The position numbers and the translations under genes were made by a program. Below are positions 3,786 to 47,228 of a DNA stretch of 64,000 bases, piece by piece. The stretch spans positions 48,484,001 through 48,548,000 of the forward strand of contig OX597817.1 in NCBI GenBank assembly GCA_951406725.2, given 5' to 3'. The number at the start of each line of letters is the position of its first letter. The stretch's first letter is position 1. The DNA comes from Octopus vulgaris (lineage: Eukaryota). Below the pieces are notes generated by a model. It was not told the origin of the DNA, did no database searches, and worked only from the letters and a program-made list of their open reading frames with translations.

Positions 3786-3986
3786 TGTGTGTGTGTGTGT
3801 GTGTGTATGTATGTGTGCGTGTGTGTGCGTGTGTGTGTGCGTGTGCGTGTGTGTGTGTATAAAATTAAATAAAGAGGGTAGAAATTGATATTAATCAATT
3901 AAAACCAGTGGCTTAGCATATGTAAAAATCCGAAGATTAACAATTATATTACAAACAAAATTAAGAGGTCATTCCTCTCAATTTTG

Positions 3987-4069
<83 letters not shown>

Positions 4070-18900: not shown

Positions 18901-20520
18901 TAGCAGAGATACCCGGCGTTGCCCGGTTACATTCACTAGAAGAATTAGACTTTTCTGTTATATATATATATGGATACACACACACACACAGACACACACA
19001 TACACACACACACGCACACACAAATATATGTATATTAATATAAATACATGAAAGTACATGAAGTTTGTTAAAAAAAGGGGGATCATGTATATACCTCCTG
19101 GCTGTTGAGATTATAACACCTCGTTGTAAACAATGTTCCTTGTTTTTCCTTGTGGAGCATATACAAAAAGGTTTCTTTTGGTTCCTACTCTTGAGCAGCC
19201 AACATACAGTTGCCTATGCCAGAAGCAGGGCTCTTCCAAGAGAAGACCAGCTACAGAGAGGGTTTGACCCTGAGTTTTGTTAATGGACATGGCAATGCTG
19301 AGACGAAGGGGGAATTGCAGTCTTCTGAATGTAAATGGAATTTCTGCTCCTCGTGGAGTAAGAGGAAATCTTGGAATAAAGATGTCATCACCTTTTCCAC
19401 ATCCAGAAAGAATGATCGCCTCGATAACGTGTAATATCATTTTCTTTGTCACCAGTCGTGTTCCATTGCAAAGTCTTGGTGGTTCCAGATTGCGGAGTAG
19501 CATTACAGGAGTTCCAACTTTAAGTGGTAATATGTGTGGAGGTAGTTGAGGAGGGCTCCAGTGAATTGAGAAATTCAGGAGGATAGTTCACAACTTCATT
19601 TGTATCTGGAATTGTATCAACAGACTTGTAAGTGTGTATAGTGCCGAGAAAAGAATGCATTAGCTGTTGATTAATTTTTTAACAGCGATGTTTTTTGGAG
19701 CTAATATTGCTCTTTCACACAGACAATTGTGATTTTGGTAGTTTTGTGTGAAGGTGGGAAAGACTTTGTTTTTGAGTCATCTACAGAATTAACAACAGAG
19801 GAAAATGACCACACTTCCATTTGTCCTGCAGCATCGAGAGGCATCTTGCCTTCACCAAGTGTCAAAATGTTCTGTGCAAACTTTGTGGACATTTTGTCGC
19901 CGTGTAGCTGAGCTCTCATGTTAGTGGTGAGACTAAAGATGATGCCACAGTGTAGAGGACTTTAGGCATGCTTGAACTTCATCAGCTCTAGTGCCTTTCG
20001 GAATGACAGGAAGAGTTTGCCTGAAATAACCTGACAACAGAAGCGTTACACCTCCCATTGGAGCCTGACAGTCTCGGATGTCTTTCAGGGCTCTATCTAA
20101 TGCTTCCAAAGCTCCCTTGTGAGCCATAGTGCACTCATCCCAGACAATTACATGACACATTTTAAGTACTTGTCCCTGATCTGAGCTTTTATTGATGTTG
20201 CATGAAGGCATTTCGGATGCTGCTAAATTGAGAGGGAGTTTAAAAGTTGAGTGTGCTGTCCTGCCTCCGGGTAACAAAGTAGCAGCAATGCCAGAGGAGG
20301 CTACAGCTACTGCAATGTCCTGATGCTACCTAACTTCTGCAAGGAGAAGCTTTGTAATAAATGTTTTTCCTGTCCCTCCAGGAGCATCGAGGAAGAAGAT
20401 TCGTCCCTCGCGTTGGCGTACACTGTTAAGAATAGTTCTGTAGGCCTGCAGCTGGTCCGGAAGTAATTTAGGCTCATTTTCAACAATGTACTTTGAAAGC
20501 GCTTGTGTGTCGTAGGTTGT
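18900..20520 (-). mobile_element. 5'-truncated Helitron with intact 3' terminus
   Basis: Minus strand ends ccgggcaacgccgggtatctctgCTAG|t (subterminal GC-rich hairpin plus CTAG) downstream of the helicase. Confidence 0.85.
19111..20520 (-). pseudogene. Helitron Rep/Hel PIF1-like SF1 helicase domain, disrupted
   Basis: FLDAPGGTGKTF (Walker A), ASSGIAATLLPGGRTAHSTFKLP, IVWDECTM, GYFRQTLPV, MLLRNL..LCNGTRL, QFPLRLSIAMSINKTQGQTL, QLYVGCSRV; in-frame stops and frameshifts. Confidence 0.95.
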
Positions 20521-21825
20521 ATATATGTACAAAATCCACCGAGAAGGCTTTTGTTGGTCTGAAGCTACAGCAGAAGACACATGCCAAGTCACCACACAGT
20601 GGGACTGAACCCAGGACCATGTGTTTGGAACGTAGTTTGTTACCACACAGCCACACCTGCCCCTATGTATGTGTGTGTGTGTGTGCGTGTGTGCGTATGT
20701 GTATATGGGTAGATATATTATGCATGTATATATGTATATATATATATGTGTACATGTTACATGTACATCTATATATATACATCTACACATAAAATACAAA
20801 ATACAAAGTTATATCTTGATATCGCTAGTGATAACAATACTCAAAATATATAACATACTGGAATTGTAGGCCCGTCTCTTGCAATTTCGATCAATTGGAT
20901 CTTGTCCTCCCTCTTGTATAGAAGTGTACGGCTGCAGCGAAATTCATTTTTGGACTTTCTTCTATCGAAAGCATTTTAACAAAAATGCTTCCGTAAAGAC
21001 GGTGAAAATATTGTCAATTTTCCCAAACAGGGACACAATTCAATTTTTAAACAATAACGAAAGCCCCTACTCCGAAAGGGGAAGGGTTACGGTTTACAAT
21101 TATTTAACAAATGCAACACAACAACGTTTCCCTGACGAGGAACCAACAAACGTGATTACAATAGTCAAACAGTAATAATAATAACAACAAACCTTTTTAA
21201 TTTATCCCCATTTATGTGAAACCACTTATTCAAGTTCAAGTCATTGATGCAATTTTATACGAATTGCTAATACACACACACACACACACACATAATAAGG
21301 GTGAAAAATTGAATATTAATTTGATTAATATGAATTGAAAACCAGTGGTGTAGCATATAAGACCATAGCGGATCTTCCTCTCGCAAAAACGATGACCACT
21401 ATTAATGGCTCATCCCTGTTATATAATACTTTCACTTTAATAGTTTCACACTTGCAAAGAGAAAGTAGGAGAAAGTGTGGTGGTAATAGCAGGAGTAAAC
21501 CACTTGAAATGAGAGAGGCAAATCGTAAAATATTGAGTTTTCTCGAATTTTTGCTTAATTGGGAGTCAAATTGAAAAAGCTTTACATGCCATGACCCAAT
21601 CGAATCTACTTGGAAAAATCATAGGTAAATTCCAATTGAAGAAATTCTATATTGTAGAATTGTATTAAAAAGAAACATGGGAACAGGCAGAGAAAATCTG
21701 CCTTTTATCATAAGAGATATACCGGAGTAAACACATAAATGTGAAACAAGGTGGAAAAAAGAGTACTCAAATACCAGTGGTAGAGTAATATGCTTTATTT
21801 AAAGCAGCAGAAAATTCAACAAAAC

Positions 21826-24894: not shown

Positions 24895-24964
<70 letters not shown>

Positions 24965-25097
24965 TCAATATCGGTGGCTTATATTTATTTGCTGCCGATA
25001 AATTTGGCGCGAGTGCGACGATTTGAAAATTTTAGGTCAGATATTGCCGAGGTAGCAAGAGGAATGCCTCGTGAAAAATATCTGTTCCGACTTGGCT

Positions 25098-25204
25098 ATT
25101 TCTTACTGATGAGTCTAAGGGCCTATGGTGGATTGGCTTGATTTAATTTAATCAGGTTAGTTTACCATTAAACGGTAGATGAAACGGTGCATCGTCTAAG
25201 AAAT
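25098..25204 (+). ncRNA. Type I hammerhead ribozyme, 491-bp unit 1
   Basis: Stem I atttctta/taagaaat; CTGATGA at 25106-25112; stem II gtcta/tagat with a long hairpin insert; GAAA; stem III ACGG-TGCA-TCGT; GUC cleavage triplet at 25194-25196. Confidence 0.9.
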
Positions 25205-25588
25205 TACAGGGTAAAAGTTTTTCAATTTTCTCCTGGTTTACGGAATTAATGTTATTTTGCGGTTAAAGCTTTTGGCTGTTATTTCTAGTGGGTGAATGGC
25301 CTATTATGGCCGTTCCTTGATTGTGATGTTGAACGTAAAAATGGTTTATGACTATTTAATTTTTTCCTACTAGGCCGCTGGTGGCAAAAGAATTCTACAA
25401 AATTTTTTTTGCCACCATATATTGATTAATTATGAATTTTCTGGTTAGTTCCGTAATGGAATCGGTGGCTTATATTTATTTGCTGCCGATAAATTTGGCG
25501 CGAGTGCGACGATTTGAAAATTTTAGGTCAGATATTGCCGAGGTAGCAAGAGGAATGCCTCGTGAAAAATATCTGTTCCGACTTGGCT

Positions 25589-25695
25589 ATTTCTTACTGA
25601 TGAGTCTAAGGGCCTATGGTGGATTGGCTTGATTTAATTTAATCAGGTTAGTTTACCATTAAACGGTAGATGAAACGGTGCATCGTCTAAGAAAT
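25589..25695 (+). ncRNA. Type I hammerhead ribozyme, 491-bp unit 2
   Basis: Same motif as 25098-25204. Confidence 0.9.
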
Positions 25696-26079
25696 TACAG
25701 GGTAAAAGTTTTTCAATTTTCTCCTGGTTTACGGAATTAATGTTATTTTGCGGTTAAAGCTTTTGGCTGTTATTTCTAGTGGGTGAATGGCCTATTATGG
25801 CCGTTCCTTGATTGTGATGTTGAACGTAAAAATGGTTTATGACTATTTAATTTTTTCCTACTAGGCCGCTGGTGGCAAAAGAATTCTACAAAATTTTTTT
25901 TGCCACCCTATATTGATTAATTATGAATTTTCTGGTTAGTTCCGTAATGGAATCGGTGGCTTATATTTATTTGCTGCCGATAAATTTGGCGCGAGTGCGA
26001 CGATTTGAAAATTTTAGGTCAGATATTGCCGAGGTAGCAAGAGGAATGCCTCGTGAAAAATATCTGTTCCGACTTGGCT

Positions 26080-26186
26080 ATTTCTTACTGATGAGTCTAA
26101 GGGCCTATGGTGGATTGGCTTGATTTAATTTAATCAGGTTAGTTTACCATTAAACGGTAGATGAAACGGTGCATCGTCTAAGAAAT
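26080..26186 (+). ncRNA. Type I hammerhead ribozyme, 491-bp unit 3
   Basis: Same motif as 25098-25204. Confidence 0.9.
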
Positions 26187-26569
26187 TACAGGGTAAAAGT
26201 TTTTCAATTTTCTCCTGGTTTACGGAATTAATGTTATTTTGCGGTTAAAGCTTTTGGCTGTTATTTCTAGTGGGTGAATGGCCTATTATGGCCGTTCCTT
26301 GATTGTGATGTTGAACGTAAAAATGGTTTATGACTATTTAATTTTTTCCTACTAGGCCGCTGGTGGCAAAAGAATTCTACAAAATTTTTTTGCCACCCTA
26401 TATTGATTAATTATGAATTTTCTGGTTAGTTCCGTAATGGAATCGGTGGCTTATATTTATTTGCTGCCGATAAATTTGGCGCGAGTGCGACGATTTGAAA
26501 ATTTTAGGTCAGATATTGCCGAGGTAGCAAGAGGAATGCCTCGTGAAAAATATCTGTTCCGACTTGGCT

Positions 26570-26676
26570 ATTTCTTACTGATGAGTCTAAGGGCCTATGG
26601 TGGATTGGCTTGATTTAATTTAATCAGGTTAGTTTACCATTAAACGGTAGATGAAACGGTGCATCGTCTAAGAAAT
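26570..26676 (+). ncRNA. Type I hammerhead ribozyme, 491-bp unit 4
   Basis: Same motif as 25098-25204. Confidence 0.9.
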
Positions 26677-26794
26677 TACAGGGTAAAAGTTTTTCAATTT
26701 TCTCCTGGTTTACGGAATTAATGTTATTTTGCGGTTAAAGCTTTTGGCTGTTATTTCTAGTGGGTGAATGGCCTATTATGGCCGTTCCTTGATT

Positions 26795-26834
<40 letters not shown>

Positions 26835-28716: not shown

Positions 28717-28899
28717 CAAAAATGGGACAAGAACCCAAAACATCCTGACAGTTAGGTGATAGAAAAAAGGGACAACAAAACATCCAGACAGACGATACAA
28801 AGAAAACAAGGTCGGGCCATTCGGAGTTTTCTTTCCTCAGTCGAGTTCCAGATTATCTTTGCAATTTCGGCTGGTTATACACGAGATTGCTCCAGTCTG

Positions 28900-30517
28900 G
28901 CTAACTACTGCAGGAAGGTCTAAAAGTGTAGTGCAACGAATTGTAGCTCGTTTTAAGTCATCAGGATCGACATATGCTAAACCCCAAACCGGTAGACCTC
29001 GTAAAACTTTACCAAAACAGGATCGTATTATGGTTAGAATGTTACTGAAGGAGAGGTTTAAGAATGCTGCTGAGATATCCCGCGAGTTTGGCTCCACTTC
29101 CGATATCAACGTATCGCGTAAAACAATTTCTCGCAGGTTACGAGGTCCTGGGTTGCTTGCTCGGGCACCGACAAAGAAACATCTGATCTCCAAGAAGAAT
29201 CAAAGAACCTGTCTTCGTTTTGCTCACGAACATGTCGTTTTGGACAGAATAACAAGGGTCGCAGGTTCATTTTAGCGATGAATCGAAGTTTAATGTGATT
29301 GGTTCCGACGGCGAGATGTACGTCCGACGAAGTGGCGAAAGGTTATCTTGTGCACGGGAGAAGCACACAGTGAAATATGAAGGAAGCAGTGTATTGGTAT
29401 GGGGAGCTAGCAGAATCGTTAGCACGCCGGATGAAATGCTTAGCGGTATTTCGCCTGCCACTACGTCCTGAGTTCGAATTCCGCCGAGGTCGACTTTGCC
29501 TTTCATCCTTTCGGGGTCGATTAAATAAGTACCAGTTACGCACTGGGGTCGATATAATCGACTTGATCCCCATGTCCGTCCTTGTTGGTCCTCTCTGTGT
29601 TTAGCCTCTTGTGGGTAGTAAAGAAATGGGTATTTCGCCTGCCGTTACGTTCTGAGTTCAAATTCCGCCGAGGTCGTCTTTGCCTTTCATCCTTTCGGGG
29701 TCGATAAATTAAGTACCAGTTACGCACTGGGGTCGATATAATCGACTTAATCCGTTTGTCTGTCCTTGTTTGTCTCCTCAGTGTTTAGCCCCTTGTGGGT
29801 AGTAAAGAAATAGGTATGGGGAGTGACCTCTGCTGCTGATCCTGGTCCATTTATTCGTCCAGAAGGGACTGTCAATGCTGAAATCTACGAACAGATTCTT
29901 CGACAGCATGTCCTTCCACATCTCTGATCCTCGTCAATTCAGCCTCTTATCTTCGTACAGGACAACGCTCTCTGACACACTGCGAAGAGAGTCAAAGATT
30001 GTTTTGAGAGATGAAGGGGTTGATCTCATGGACTGGTCACCTCAAATTTCCGATCTCAACCCTCTAGAAAACGTTTGGAAGATTATTGGATGGGACGCGA
30101 AGGAGAAATCCAAATAACCAAGATGAACTCTGGGAATTATTGAAAAACGAATGGAAAATTAATCCATCATTTTGCAAGAAATTAATTCAGTCTTTTGGTG
30201 TCAAGGAGTTCATTGATATTAAAGCGATGTTCACAAAAATTTAATAGTTAGGGTTTCTTTTTTGTTTTTGCTCCATTTTTTTCATTGTTTTTCTAAGTTA
30301 CCCTTAACTTTTGGCTGTTGCAGTTTGGAAGATTATTTGTTTATTTCCTCATAACTTACGAAATATTTATTCCTTTTATTTGAAATTTTCACGAAAGATA
30401 GATATTAGATATATCTAAATATGTGTAAAATATCTAGTCCCAACGTATTGTTAATCTTCCATAATAAATATTTCAATACACTTGTTCTTACTGACCCTTA
30501 TATTACGGCTGCTACTG
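28900..30517 (+). mobile_element. Tc1-like DD34E transposon relic, interrupted by a SINE dimer
   Basis: GRPRKT, VSRKTISRRL, HFSDESKFN, VLVWG|VWG, QDNA, WSPQISDLNPLENVW; right end ...ctactg|ta; frameshifts and stops. Confidence 0.9.
29404..29812 (+). mobile_element. SINE family A dimer inserted in Tc1
   Basis: TSD ggtatggggag at 29396-29406 and 29813-29823. Confidence 0.9.
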
Positions 30518-39379: not shown

Positions 39380-39396
39380 TTTTATTTTATAGAAGG

Positions 39397-39447
39397 AGCT
39401 TCTACAGGACTAGAACTGTTTCATTCAAAAGAAATCATCAGGAAGCT
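39397..39447 (-). ncRNA. Inverted copy of the 46929-46979 hammerhead
   Basis: Reverse complement of 46929-46979. Confidence 0.8.
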
Positions 39448-39683
39448 AGGTGACAAGAATAGTTTTGGCATTTATACATTTAGGCAGGTTTAAAGGGGTG
39501 GTGGTGGGGGACTTTTTGGGGGTAGGCATGGCGCAAACTATCATTCTTAGGGGAATCAGTGATAAAGTAGATAAAAGAATAAATAGAATAATAGAGTTTA
39601 GGTAAATAAGGAGACTCTCACTTATACATATATATATATACATATACACACACACATACATATACACACACACATACATATAT

Positions 39684-39734
<51 letters not shown>

Positions 39735-39841
39735 TACATACACACATACATCCATATACACATGTACATATGCCCCCATTTACATACATCTACGTACACA
39801 CCTATACCCATACTCATACATACACACATATATCTACACAC

Positions 39842-40174
39842 ATCGGAATGACGTCAAACAGCTTTAAGACTCGTTGGTACGCCCACGCACATTCGTTCCG
39901 GCGACCTGACAAATCTAACCAAACTACTCTCGCCGCCCACATCTGGTACCTTAAAAGGAACTCCATCCCCTTCAAGATCAAGTGGAGACTACTACAGAGG
40001 GCGCGTTCGTACACAGGAGGCCATACCTGCTGTGACCTTTGCATTTCTGAGAGCCTGGAGATCTTGTTCGCCAAAGGCCCTCTCCTCAACAAGATCTCGG
40101 AACACTCCCCAAATTGTATGCACAAAATTTATGCAAACTACAAAAACTACAGACCCACCCGGCAACCCGATTGA
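39842..40174 (+). pseudogene. Penelope-like element GIY-YIG endonuclease, C-terminal fragment
   Basis: IGMTSNSFKTRWYAHAHSF...TTLAAHIWYLKRNSIPFKIKWRLL...CDLCISESLEI...LLNKISE...CMH matches the PLE endonuclease tail as I recall it (YIG, FKxR, TxLSxHIW, CxLC, LNK, CxH). Confidence 0.85.
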
Positions 40175-40239
40175 CGACACCCCACCTCCACCGTTCCCTC
40201 AGCACCCCCAATTACCTTCTCTCCTAAGACTATTCACAT

Positions 40240-40376
40240 ATTGTATGTGTACACATGTATATATGTATAGATATGTATGGGTGGAGGTATGAATATACGT
40301 ATGTATGTGTGTGCGTGTATTTACATGCGTGTATATATATGTGTATGTATATATGTGTGTATGTACATGTATGTGG

Positions 40377-40426
<50 letters not shown>

Positions 40427-40845
40427 ATATATATATATGTGTGCATATGTGTATATGTGTATATGTGTATATGTGTATATATGTATATATATATATATAT
40501 GTACGCTTGTGTGTTTATGTATATGTAGGTATGTAGATTTATGTGTATGTGTATGTATTTAGGTATATATATATACATATGTGTAAATAGGTATACATGT
40601 GTGTGTTTATATGTATGTATCCGTCTGTATGATGGGTAATTTCACGTATATATATTTATTATTTATTATTTGAGTATGCATGTATGTATATATGTATATG
40701 TTTGTATGCATGTGTGTATTTATGTATATATAGATGCGCGTGTGTGCGTGTATGTGTATGCATATGTATATACATATGTATACATTTATGTATGCGTATG
40801 TGTGTTGGTGTATATATGTGTATATATGTGTATTTGTGTGCGTTC

Positions 40846-40899
<54 letters not shown>

Positions 40900-41012
40900 A
40901 TATATATATGTGTGTGTGTGTATATGCCTGTATACCTCTGTGTAGATGTATGTATATGGGTGTGCGTACGGATGTATATGTATGTGTATGTAGATGTGTG
41001 TGTATGTATATG

Positions 41013-41063
<51 letters not shown>

Positions 41064-41810
41064 GTGTGTATATATGTGTATGTGTATATGTATGTATATA
41101 TGTATGGGTATATATGTGTATATGTATGTATGTGTATGTGTGTATATGTATGGACTTGTTGAGTTTCTTTTTTCATATATGTAGATAGATGTGTGTGCGT
41201 GTATGTGCGTAGATATGCATATGTGTATTAGTATGCGCATGTGTTTATATATGTGTATGTATATGTAGGTATATGCGTACGTGTATGTGTGTATATATAT
41301 ATATATATGTATATATATGTATATATATGTATATGTATATATATGTGTATATGTATATTTGTGTATATATATGGACTAGTCTTCTTTGTGTGTGTAGATG
41401 TATGTGTATGCGTGTAGATATGAATTTGTAGGTACGTGTACGTATGTGTATATACGTGCATGTATGTATATGTATGTGTGTAGGTAGATATATGTAGGTA
41501 TGCTTTTATGTACACGTGTATGCGTGCATGTGTGCAAATATGTACTTACAGGCGTATGGATGCGTATATATGCGTATGTATGCTTATATGCACAAATGTC
41601 TGTATATAGGCATATGCGTCTATACATGCGGGCAGAGGTTCATGTGTGTTTATGTGTACGGAAGTACATTTATATATGTGGTTTTGTGTGTACATAGTTA
41701 TATGTGAAATTCGGTACACTTATGTATGTATGAATATAACACGTGCGTCTGTGTATGTGTATGAGTGTGCGTGTGAGTGTGTATGCGTGTGTGAGTGTTT
41801 GTGTTCGTAT
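40240..41810. repeat. 1.6-kb degenerate TA/TG alternating purine-pyrimidine tract
   Basis: Directly visible; lies immediately 3' of the GIY-YIG fragment. Confidence 0.9.
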
Positions 41811-42041
41811 CAGTGGGAAGGAAGATAGAAAGGAAGGGAGAGGGGCAATAAATGGATTCTTTAGGCCAGCTAGGCTAGATCCCTTGGGAGAACCCTACTT
41901 CAGTGCCGGCCTGGTTGGTGGAGGTCAAAATAAAAACAAAAATAAAAGTAAAAATGAATATAAAAATAAAATGAAAAAAAGGGAAGAAATGTGTGTGAAT
42001 GTGTGTGCATGTATATGCATATGTATGTGTATGTATATATG

Positions 42042-42119
<78 letters not shown>

Positions 42120-42130
42120 TGTGTGTATGA

Positions 42131-42162
<32 letters not shown>

Positions 42163-42687
42163 TTGTAAAAAATGAAGTTCGAAAATGCTGCTGTATTATA
42201 CAATTTTTAATTTTTATATATACATTATAACATGTTTCAGTTCCTGAAATGAACTTTATCAAAAAAAGTTATATATAAAAAAAGACAGCTCATGCCGTCA
42301 AACACAAGAAATTCATTTATAATACACAACGGAGTCAGACATCTTAGAGTTCATGTATAGTTGATATATAGTTCATGTATAGTTGATATATAGTTTGAAG
42401 TATATGTTCAAAGTGTTCGATGCAGTGGCCCACGGTGGCGATACGTATTCAATACAAAAAACAGATCAAAGTGGTGGAAAGCGGTCAATACAGAAGATTG
42501 ATGTTTCCGAAAGAGCGAGGAATTCATTTTTACCTTAAGCAAATGTGATGACCCATGGTGGATGTTCGCTGGGTGGTTCTAATGAGTTTTTGTGAAGTGC
42601 TCGGTTTTATAATGCCTGTTAGGTGGTCAATCCAGTGTAGCGTGACGTCATCAACGTTTTGACCAATCGTTTCGTTAGGTGGCTTTA

Positions 42688-42900
42688 GTCAAGTAGAACG
42701 GGACGTCATCATTATTTTGACCAATCGCTGCATTATAACTGCCTCTTGTTTGTTTCCTGTTTTGACCAGTCGCTTCGTTAGTCAAGTAGAACGGGACGTC
42801 ATCATTATTTTGACCAATCGCTGCATTATAACTGCCTCTTGTTTGTTTCCTGTTTTGACCAGTCGCTTCGTTAATCAAGCAGAACGGGACGTCATGCAGA
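42688..42900 (+). repeat. 93-bp minisatellite (~2.3 units) rich in GACGTCA and CCAAT
   Basis: Units start at 42688, 42781 and 42874. Confidence 0.85.
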
Positions 42901-43247
42901 TTCTGCCCAATCACGACTTATAGCTACATTAGATCTGCCCCCTGTCTGTACTTGTTAGGCGACTATTCAAGCAGAAAAGGACGTCATCAATATTCTGACT
43001 AATGACTGTCCCCTGTTTGTATCCTGTCCATTCTAGCTGAGCTAGACGTCATATATATATATATAGATATGTGAGCGTGTGTATATGGGGGTGTATATCC
43101 TCTTTTATATTTGTTTTTATATTTATTTATTTTTATATATATGTGTGTAGATATATGTGTGTATGTATGAGTATGGGTATGGGTGTGTACGTAGATGTAT
43201 GTAAATGGGGGCATATGTACATGTGTATATGGATGTATGTGTATGTA

Positions 43248-43300
<53 letters not shown>

Positions 43301-43522
43301 GTGTATGTATATATATATATATGTGTGTGTGTGTATGTATGTGTGTGTGTATATGTATATATATATATACCAATTAAGGACTGAACACGAAAAGTGGACA
43401 GTCAACATGCTAGATATAGACGTCAAATCGTCATTCTCCACAAAAGATTATGTTCTCAGATCAAACTCAACACAAAACCATAGCAATAAACAAGTGAAAA
43501 ATATACGAAATAAAATAATTAC

Positions 43523-43587
43523 CCATGTACTAACTTAGTTTCAGCTGTTATTTTCCGCAAGGAAAACTGCAGCCATCATCAGCATGG
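43523..43587 (-). ncRNA. Type I hammerhead ribozyme (copies also at 44028-44092, 44533-44597 and 45038-45102)
   Basis: Reverse complement of the 45403-45467 motif. Confidence 0.85.
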
Positions 43588-45402
43588 TCCGTTATAAATG
43601 TAATTTGCTGGACTAAATGCAAACACGATACCGAAATATCGCGTGCATGGAGTTCAGCCTATTACATTTGAATATATCTTTCAAATGCCTTTACTTTGGC
43701 GCGTTGAGACCCGAGAAAACTAGCCTGCAGCTAATAATTAGCAGCAGTTAATTTATCGGTTAGAGAACATTTATTTATATAAAATTAATTAAGGGTAGAA
43801 ATTGATATTTATCAATTAAGACCAGTGGTCTAGCATATTAAAAAAGAATCCGAAGATTAAAATATTTATATATACCAATTAAGGACTGAACACGAAAAGT
43901 GGACAGTCAACATGCTAGATATAGACGTCAAATCGTCATTCTCCACAAAAGATTATGTTCTCAGATCAAACTCAACACAAAACCATAGCAATAAACAAGT
44001 GAAAAATATACGAAATAAAATAATTACCCATGTACTAACTTAGTTTCAGCTGTTATTTTCCGCAAGGAAAACTGCAGCCATCATCAGCATGGTCCGTTAT
44101 AAATGTAATTTGCTGGACTAAATGCAAACACGATACCGAAATATCGCGTGCATGGAGTTCAGCCTATTACATTTGAATATATCTTTCAAATGCCTTTACT
44201 TTGGCGCGTTGAGACCCGAGAAAACTAGCCTGCAGCTAATAATTAGCAGCAGTTAATTTATCGGTTAGAGAACATTTATTTATATAAAATTAATTAAGGG
44301 TAGAAAGTGATATTTATCAATTAAGACCAGTGGTCTAGCATATTAAAAAAGAATCCGAAGATTAAAATATTTATATATACCAATTAAGGACTGAACACGA
44401 AAAGTGGACAGTCAACATGCTAGATATAGACGTCAAATCGTCATTCTCCACAAAAGATTATGTTCTCAGATCAAACTCAACACAAAACCATAGCAATAAA
44501 CAAGTGAAAAATATACGAAATAAAATAATTACCCATGTACTAACTTAGTTTCAGCTGTTATTTTCCGCAAGGAAAACTGCAGCCATCATCAGCATGGTCC
44601 GTTATAAATGTAATTTGCTGGACTAAATGCAAACACGATACCGAAATATCGCGTGCATGGAGTTCAGCCTATTACATTTGAATATATCTTTCAAATGCCT
44701 TTACTTTGGCGCGTTGAGACCCGAGAAAACTAGCCTGCAGCTAATAATTAGCAGCAGTTAATTTATCGGTTAGAGAACATTTATTTATATAAAATTAATT
44801 AAGGGTAGAAATTGATATTTATCAATTAAGACCAGTGGTCTAGCATATTAAAAAAGAATCCGAAGATTAAAATATTTATATATACCAATTAAGGACTGAA
44901 CACGAAAAGTGGACAGTCAACATGCTAGATATAGACGTCAAATCGTCATTCTCCACAAAAGATTATGTTCTCAGATCAAACTCAACACAAAACCATAGCA
45001 ATAAACAAGTGAAAAATATACGAAATAAAATAATTACCCATGTACTAACTTAGTTTCAGCTGTTATTTTCCGCAAGGAAAACTGCAGCCATCATCAGCAT
45101 GGTCCGTTATAAATGTAATTTGCTGGACTAAATGCAAACACGATACCGAAATATCGCGTGCATGGAGTTCAGCCTATTACATTTGAATATATCTTTCAAA
45201 TGCCTTTACTTTGGCGCGTTGAGACCTGCAGCTAATAATTAGCAGCAGTTAATTATTAGCTGCAGGCTAGTTTTCTCGGGTCTCAACGCGCCAAAGTAAA
45301 GGCATTTGAAAGATATATTCAAATGTAATAGGCTGAACTCCATGCACGCGATATTTCGGTATCGTGTTTGCATTTAGTCCAGCAAATTACATTTATAACG
45401 GA

Positions 45403-45467
45403 CCATGCTGATGATGGCTGCAGTTTTCCTTGCGGAAAATAACAGCTGAAACTAAGTTAGTACATGG
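45403..45467 (+). ncRNA. Type I hammerhead ribozyme (copies also at 45908-45972 and 46412-46476)
   Basis: Stem I ccatg/catgg; CTGATGA plus an extra T; stem II ggctg/cagct enclosing ttttcc-ttgc-ggaaaa; GAAA; stem III ACTA-AGT-TAGT; GUA triplet at 45460-45462. Confidence 0.85.
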
Positions 45468-46928
45468 GTAATTATTTTATTTCGTATATTTTTCACTTGT
45501 TTATTGCTATGGTTTTGTGTTGAGTTTGATCTGAGAACATAATCTTTTGTGGAGAATGACGATTTGACGTCTATATCTAGCATGTTGACTGTCCACTTTT
45601 CGTGTTCAGTCCTTAATTGGTATATATAAATATTTTAATCTTCGGATTCTTTTTTAATATGCTAGACCACTGGTCTTAATTGATAAATATCAATTTCTAC
45701 CCTTAATTAATTTTATATAAATAAATTTTCTGTAACCGATAAATTAACTGCTGCTAATTATTAGCTGCAGGCTAGTTTTCTCGGGTCTCAACGCGCCAAA
45801 GTAAAGGCATTTGAAAGATATATTCAAATGTAATAGGCTGAACTCCATGCACGCGATATTTCGGTATCGTGTTTGCATTTAGTCCAGCAAATTACATTTA
45901 TAACGGACCATGCTGATGATGGCTGCAGTTTTCCTTGCGGAAAATAACAGCTGAAACTAAGTTAGTACATGGGTAATTATTTTATTTCGTATATTTTTCA
46001 CTTGTTTATTGCTATGGTTTTGTGTTGAGTTTGATCTGAGAACATAATCTTTTGTGGAGAATGACGATTTGACGTCTATATCTAGCATGTTGACTGTCCA
46101 CTTTTCGTGTTCAGTCCTTAATTGGTATATATAAATATTTTAATCTTCGGATTCTTTTTAATATGCTAGACCACTGGTCTTAATTGATAAATATCAATTT
46201 CTACCCTTAATTAATTTTATATAAATAAATTTTCTGTAACCGATAAATTAACTGCTGCTAATTATTAGCTGCAGGCTAGTTTTCTCGGGTCTCAACGCGC
46301 CAAAGTAAAGGCATTTGAAAGATATATTCAAATGTAATAGGCTGAACTCCATGCACGCGATATTTCGGTATCGTGTTTGCATTTAGTCCAGCAAATTACA
46401 TTTATAACGGACCATGCTGATGATGGCTGCAGTTTTCCTTGCGGAAAATAACAGCTGAAACTAAGTTAGTACATGGGTAATTATTTTATTTCGTATATTT
46501 TTCACTTGTTTATTGCTATGGTTTTGTGTTGAGTTTGATCTGAGAACATAATCTTTTGTGGAGAATGACGATTTGACGTCTATATCTAGCATGTTGACTG
46601 TCCACTTTTCGTGTTCAGTCCTTAATTGGTATATATAAATATTTTAATCTTCGGATTCTTTTTTAATATGCTAGACCACTGGTCTTAATTGATAAATATC
46701 AATTTCTACCCTTAATTAATTTTATATAAATTTTGTATATATATATATGTATAAGTGAGAGTCTCCTTATTTACCTAAACTCTATTATTCAATTTATTCT
46801 TTTATCTACTTTATCACTGATTCCCCTAAGAATGATAGTTTGCGCCATGCCTACCCCCAAAAAGTCCCCCACCACCACCCCTTTAAACCTGCCTAAATGT
46901 ATAAATGCCAAAACTATTCTTGTCACCT

Positions 46929-46979
46929 AGCTTCCTGATGATTTCTTTTGAATGAAACAGTTCTAGTCCTGTAGAAGCT
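46929..46979 (+). ncRNA. Minimal type I hammerhead in a Penelope-like pseudo-LTR
   Basis: agcttc CTGATGA t-ttc-tttt-gaa-t GAAA cag-ttctagtc-ctg TA gaagct: 6-bp stem I, GUA triplet. Confidence 0.8.
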
Positions 46980-47061
46980 CCTTCTATAAAATAAATTAAT
47001 TTACTCTGCTATGTATTGAGTACCTTATTTACTGTGGTTAACACCGACTCAACCCGGGACC

Positions 47062-47228
<167 letters not shown>

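Follow-up and report, generated by a model that had tools for sequence, protein, structure and literature searches.

The locus analysed here lies in a 64,000-nucleotide stretch of Octopus vulgaris DNA (GenBank assembly GCA_951406725.2, contig OX597817.1), hereafter the window, and consists of a tandem repeat arranged in two opposed arms around a head-to-head junction. The repeat unit is 505 nt long (504 nt in a single right-arm unit), with a GC content of 33%. A strict scan of both strands returned exactly seven type I hammerhead motifs for the whole window, all within this array and all with GUA as the cleavage triplet, in agreement with the first-pass annotation, which had described seven outward-pointing ribozymes, four on the minus strand in the left arm and three on the plus strand in the right. 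The features are as follows, with the H17 position given for each motif:

43356..43369: left TA run of the target, in which up to 8 of the 14 bases are possibly unit-derived
43362..45241, minus strand: left arm, about 3.7 tandem 505-nt units, 3' end at family site A
43523..43587, minus strand: type I hammerhead motif, H17 43528, the sole motif outside the fold-back stem
44028..44092, minus strand: type I hammerhead motif, H17 44033
44533..44597, minus strand: type I hammerhead motif, H17 44538
45038..45102, minus strand: type I hammerhead motif, H17 45043
45225..45266: head-to-head junction, 17-bp perfect stem with an 8-nt loop
45250..46731, plus strand: right arm, about 2.96 units, 3' end at family site B
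45403..45467, plus strand: type I hammerhead motif, H17 45462
45908..45972, plus strand: type I hammerhead motif, H17 45967
46412..46476, plus strand: type I hammerhead motif, H17 46471
46630..46731, plus strand: A-to-B 'tail', a terminal extension of the right arm only
46732..46748: right flank, 4 extra bases followed by a 13-nt TA run

The repeat has the features of a retrozyme: it is tandem and non-coding, has a GC content below 50%, one hammerhead per unit and at least two consecutive units, and is dispersed in multiple copies. The frames of at least 100 aa that touch the array all start in the flanking microsatellite. In published animal non-LTR retrozymes, too, each unit carries a single type I hammerhead, and the tandem repeats are dispersed, non-coding and low in GC (Cervera and de la Pena, 2020, PMC7229834; Li, Clavereau and Pollet, 2026, 10.64898/2026.07.22.740005), which supports the earlier assignment to a retrozyme-type array. 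According to the same sources, animal retrozymes co-occur with Penelope-like elements (PLEs) and most families reach about seven units; the 505-nt unit compares with about 170-400 nt in PMC7229834 and with 51-972 in 10.64898/2026.07.22.740005. A plant LTR retrozyme, with type III hammerheads in LTRs, PBS/PPT and a 4-bp TSD, was ruled out by the type I motif, the tandem units and the TA target. Additionally, the unit folds much better than its shuffles (z = -7.6, 0/100), and it is unrelated to the 491-nt unit of the window, as already claimed from the sequence alone, the best match between the two being non-significant (E 1.1).

Particularly, the motif at 45403..45467 contains the CUGANGA/GAAA/NUH core with stems I-III in type I order, a 5-bp stem I, an extra U after A9, an extended stem II and an interrupted-palindrome stem III. 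The core is unchanged in 152/156 copies of the 505-nt family, and an Rfam scan at gathering thresholds gave no match. In the predicted fold of the circular monomer, stem I (p 0.49-0.84) and stem II (p 0.89-0.99) are formed and stem III is absent (p ~0.02); the interrupted palindrome of stem III is predicted to pair between two copies, in an intermolecular duplex of -8.6 kcal/mol. Given the lack of stem III in the predicted monomer fold, cleavage at GUA would depend on dimer formation or tertiary contacts. In this regard, stem III resembles the weak, dimer-dependent helix III of amphibian retrozymes (PMC7229834), and 8/9 predicted Xenopus retrozymes gave no cleavage in vitro (10.64898/2026.07.22.740005). 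When compared to an older relative family, 65-82% identical to the 505-nt family, stems I and III show three pairs changed on both sides and 97.8% of cells paired, in a small sample of five sequences that represent essentially two lineages; stem II was omitted from this count because it is poorly aligned. Judged from sequence, the motif is a predicted self-cleaving type I hammerhead whose stems I and III appear to be kept by compensatory change. Of the four hairpins previously named on the ribozyme strand, the predicted fold of the circular monomer contains two, aatc-TTCG-gatt (pair probability 0.45-0.66) and acgcgatat/gtatcgtgt (0.48-1.0); the other two, gcatttgaa/ttcaaatgt and ggctgaa/tttagtc, have probability 0 there in the named register.

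The two arms are complementary at 1461/1466 aligned bases (43773-45239 against 45252-46731), and the left arm extends about 410 nt past the mirrored region, its outer boundary falling within the TA run at 43356-43369. The palindrome is imperfect, as it shows a 14-nt deletion near the centre, two arm-specific positions and unlike outer ends. The deletion affects the left arm at 45224/45225, beside a TAATT microhomology that is carried by the junction and derives from a self-complementary stretch of the unit. At unit positions 265 and 270, all units of one arm differ from those of the other, with two private bases in both full right-arm units.

The insertion occupies a TA run in the 3' UTR of a Hydra-like two-armed element located at about 39381-47068. 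The other arm of this host element (39590-39730, minus strand) provides the empty site, with a single 13-nt TA run, and the comparison of filled and empty sites is compatible with a TA duplication of 6-13 bp plus the 4 extra bases on the right side. The host PLE retains a GIY-YIG C-terminal fragment (39845-40171), a microsatellite-rich 3' UTR and its own hammerhead core (46935-46973, plus strand), and has 17214 first-look candidates in the genome; in the Hydra-like copies retrieved, RT and endonuclease lie in separate frames. Elsewhere in the window, broken frames at 19111-20799 and 28859-29275 resemble what we take to be a PIF1-type (Helitron-like) helicase and a Tc1-like transposase.

A near-perfect central hairpin could also be created artificially, by a read or an assembly folding back a head-to-tail array. 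Public contigs do not span the array, and no contig of four public runs bridges the junction, which is no proof of absence. The flanks, however, are not mirrored and correspond to the collinear halves of the empty site, the arms stop at two different sites, both typical of the family, and carry fixed base differences, and 25 other loci share the layout with different junctions. Unmirrored collinear flanks, different ends and fixed arm differences argue against a fold-back artefact, which we regard as highly improbable, and the palindrome is very likely real DNA.

Our genome search scored the best 38 loci among 1513 first-look candidates, 37 of them retrieved from outside the window, a sample biased toward long, young copies. 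These best 38 of 1513 are dispersed over many chromosomes and share 97-100% identity. The two-armed layout is found in 26 of the 38, with the 3' ends pointing outward in all, and the remaining 12 are single-armed, seven ending at site A and five at site B; one locus counted as single-armed, L058, carries an 8-nt inverted A arm and is thus a 27th two-ended locus. Every arm stops at either site A, about 160 nt past the cleavage site (about unit nt 159-166), or site B, about 255 nt past it (about 252-260), site B lying about 93 nt beyond site A; one A end falls about 15 nt short. Each site consists of a short TA tract preceded by the CCTTAATT motif, and 61/64 ends lie within a run of at least (TA)6, exceeding what the unit supplies. 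The A end of L039 sits in (ATC)n.

The two ends are strictly paired: all 26 two-armed loci combine one A and one B end (13 A/B and 13 B/A), with zero A/A or B/B (p = 1.5e-8, assuming independent, equally likely ends). The longer arm ends at A in 12/26 of these loci and at B in 14/26. In contrast to these fixed 3' ends, the 5' ends are scattered, and an enrichment at the cleavage site was rejected for the 505-nt family (3/52 within 15 nt of it vs 3.1 expected). At most arm junctions, the unit positions brought together lie far apart, and the arms either overlap by 0-17 nt or are separated by insertions of up to 26 nt; the 29-nt overlap of the window locus counts in its 14-nt deletion. At L057 and L037, site-B ends carry short duplications of the last 10-40 nt past site B, suggesting aborted and repeated initiation. 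Pairing of sites A and B into one RNA helix mimicking the TA target was discarded, given a summed pair probability of 0.0006 and a tail alignment with pairs changed on both sides in 0/22 cases. The older relative family is represented in the window by a miniature two-armed relic (3858-3987) with the same two end sites and about 80% identity in the A-B tail; it has 1384 first-look candidates in the genome.

Opposite arms also share their haplotype. At six polymorphic sites in 25 two-armed loci we found 0/128 mismatches between arms, whereas shuffled arms gave a mean of 31% and a minimum of 16% over 2000 shuffles. Arm-fixed variants recur in the opposite arm in 34/35 cases, locus-private ones in 4/5, and rare variants occur in every covered unit of the two opposing arms at L037 (9 units), L050, L052, L061 and L062. 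Variant calls leave aside arms shorter than 150 nt and the outermost 20-40 nt of each arm and keep sites 265 and 270 separate, and the cross-arm sharing tests were run without L054. By contrast, unit-specific variants are common to both arms in 0/41 cases at equal rank and in 1/63 at any rank. A shared arm haplotype together with unshared within-arm variants fits a single monomer being amplified, as would happen on a circle, with mutations arising later. Furthermore, one A and one B end together with one haplotype per locus fit both target strands being primed on one RNA, the template probably being a monomer circle. A single haplotype is also expected from a homogeneous linear multimer or from fold-back copying.

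Thirteen variants are common to part of an arm's units and not to all of them, which indicates that arms expand as DNA too; multi-unit length is therefore no proof of rolling-circle synthesis. A strict dimer-circle template was rejected, since a period-2 variant of L064 is absent from the 3'-most unit, a pattern that DNA duplication fits better. The window locus breaks the haplotype sharing (unit 265/270 in 3/3 vs 0/2 units), and the arms of L047 differ at one site. The private bases of the right arm in the window could reflect either a second template or mutation followed by duplication. In this regard, arm differences of this kind and the occurrence of DNA-level unit duplication would be in keeping with two independent insertions, or with a satellite inversion through DNA recombination, at one microsatellite; nevertheless, the arms have no TA between them, the A+B pairing is strict and the arms of a locus carry the same haplotype family-wide, so that we consider such an origin extremely improbable.

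The 505-nt family bears the footprint of a PLE, namely fixed 3' ends, 5' truncation, an inverted copy, a one-sided tail and a microsatellite target. An inverted, 5'-truncated, head-to-head copy and a tail at one end are known from endonuclease-bearing PLEs (Craig et al., 2021, PMC8557442; Arkhipova et al., 2013, PMC3846280), as are (TA)n targeting in Hydra and Naiad, microhomology junctions and hammerheads upstream of the 3' ends; the restriction of the tail to just one inverted end has already been described there. Unlike those PLEs, the 505-nt family has no ORF, builds multi-unit arms from a small unit and carries a tail of about 93 nt vs 30-40 nt. PMC8557442 describes as undefined how PLEs come to insert in inverted form with a tail on one side. 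For Poseidon PAc of the green anole, both target strands are cut and extended in vitro by a predicted dimer, and two internal start sites downstream of the hammerhead define the tail at an AT-rich target (Frangieh et al., 2024, PMC11167929). The 505-nt family is similar to PAc in having two tail-defining sites downstream of the hammerhead and an AT-rich target. As described in that work, however, the two PAc start sites lie side by side, share no homology with the target and show no strand difference, whereas in the 505-nt family both sites carry UA tracts that match the target, and the two arms of a locus always use different sites.

We consider it probable that the locus is a single young insertion of an animal non-LTR retrozyme, both arms likely stemming from one event mediated in trans by a PLE RT/GIY-YIG protein at a TA microsatellite. 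In such an event, arrays transcribed from within would self-cleave, probably as dimeric hammerheads, and the monomers would circularise. A PLE protein, probably a dimer, would cut both (TA)n strands, so that one DNA 3' end could prime at site A and the other at site B, aided by the short UA tracts. Each cDNA would then extend variably, round the circle or along a multimer, and the growing ends would be joined via microhomology to give the palindrome, with later gain of units in the arms through DNA-level duplication. In its most specific form, which we put forward tentatively as a possibility that does not reach even chances, the event would be a double rolling-circle reaction, in which an asymmetric PLE dimer acts on one monomeric ribozyme circle, the two (TA)n strands starting at two fixed sites about 93 nt apart and both polymerases circling it before their ends are joined.

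The main rival to dual priming is fold-back self-priming, as proposed for the head-to-head repeats of Penelope (PMC3846280), in which a PLE-primed cDNA or an antisense template would fold at an internal palindrome and the second arm would be trimmed or joined at the other UA site. The 17-bp stem and 8-nt loop of the window junction are those of a fold-back, and self-priming predicts a common haplotype, as observed. It gives no reason, however, for a strict one-A-one-B rule in which the longer arm may be of either type, most junctions join distant unit positions, and the window arms differ at two fixed sites. Self-priming thus seems unlikely to us, and dual priming by a PLE protein remains our preferred reading.

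In line with this notion, the same layout is present in other families of this genome, the counts being limited to loci with both ends in view. For the 491-nt family of the window, sampled as 17 distinct loci among 30 retrieved, one A and one B end are found in 9/9 two-armed loci, with ends 106 nt apart. The rule also holds in 3/3 two-armed loci of a Neptune-like RT/GIY-YIG family (27 loci examined, ends 40 nt apart) and in 5/5 of a Hydra-like family (18 loci examined, ends 73 nt apart); both clade names come from motifs compared with those in PMC8557442, not from a tree. The 491-nt array of the window (24960-26799) is two-ended, as its main arm ends at its site A and follows an inverted fragment of 10 nt that stops at its site B, and the stem II domain of its hammerhead spans about 65 nt. 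At one locus of that family (L177:1497/1498), both arms, of 1.3 and 3.5 units, start exactly at the predicted cleavage site, as if both polymerases had run off a self-cleaved 5' end, in what is a single case.

As for the PLE that would drive this mobilisation, neither the unit nor a tail profile gave a significant nucleotide match (blastn and nhmmer, best E 0.15) against 70 PLE-containing loci, a set drawn from some PLE families (Neptune-like, Hydra-like and other GIY-YIG) with no Naiad included. The A-B spacing is also unlike that of the PLE candidates (about 93 nt vs 40 in the Neptune-like and 73 in the Hydra-like family). In Xenopus, 24/57 retrozyme families match known TEs, nearly all of them PLEs (10.64898/2026.07.22.740005), whereas no homology of the 505-nt unit to a PLE pLTR was detected among these 70 loci. 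A PLE ORF of this genome, used as a tblastn query, gave no match in the window and 62 loci of the family or its relative, and the repeat is thus not itself an autonomous PLE with an RT + GIY-YIG ORF. The genome does hold an upstream ORF and an intact 781-codon RT/GIY-YIG frame in the Neptune-like family. This family carries a hammerhead-like core in which U3-A8 replaces C3-G8, with a palindromic stem III and no convincing stem I assignable, and a 3' UTR fragment at 42131-43052 of the window (minus strand) is 97.6% identical to a young Neptune-like PLE (L113-L132).

The first-pass annotation had further proposed that read-through transcripts could either release 505-nt monomers or form a dsRNA hairpin, making this a potentially self-silencing locus. 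From either side, the antisense arm would be transcribed first. The hairpin is borne out by the predicted fold, with 1423 (plus) and 1453 (minus) long-range pairs over about 1.45 kb. In that fold 0/3 sense ribozymes form on the plus transcript and 1/4 on the minus transcript, the latter being the outermost one with H17 at 43528; six of the seven ribozymes are thus predicted to be blocked, and release of monomers from read-through is not expected, because a single cut frees none. A selected self-silencing or regulatory device, whose long dsRNA would feed small-RNA or editing pathways and restrain the family, draws on this nearly perfect duplex predicted for either strand and on the abundance of two-armed loci, some of which may be transcribed through. 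The layout of these 26/38 loci (best 38 of 1513) is nevertheless the published insertion structure of PLEs, it is common to four unrelated families and explained by insertion, and the window insertion is very young, given about 1 singleton change per kb across the family, and lies in the UTR of another retroelement. The singleton spectrum, drawn up without the degraded L054 and L043, shows no A>G excess on the ribozyme strand as a trace of inherited A-to-I editing (8 vs 14 T>C, p = 0.67). A selected device is therefore very unlikely in our view, the locus is not special in this respect, and its dsRNA-forming potential is most likely a by-product of insertion.

Together, our findings define a new family of a known kind, the animal non-LTR retrozymes, of which the window locus itself is an ordinary copy. 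Retrozymes, their proposed dependence on PLEs and the inverted-plus-tail footprint are already published. A term look-up in the main texts of PMC7229834 and 10.64898/2026.07.22.740005 gave no mention of inverted arms or fixed ends in retrozymes, and our literature search, which covered open articles outside supplements and subscription papers, returned neither retrozyme inverted arms with fixed ends nor a strict one-A-one-B rule. The link between animal retrozymes and PLEs has so far been based on co-occurrence and pLTR similarity; the A+B rule, the single-haplotype arms and the variants fixed across units provide a footprint that ties a retrozyme to PLE chemistry, and the family offers a small, defined RNA for reconstitution. 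If the double rolling-circle model is true, it would explain, in a concrete and testable way, how the so far unexplained inverted-plus-tail structure of PLEs arises, and would be direct genomic evidence for circular RNA as the retrozyme intermediate. Families of this kind may also leave the genome dotted with many near-perfect inverted repeats of kilobase length, which would form dsRNA if transcribed through.
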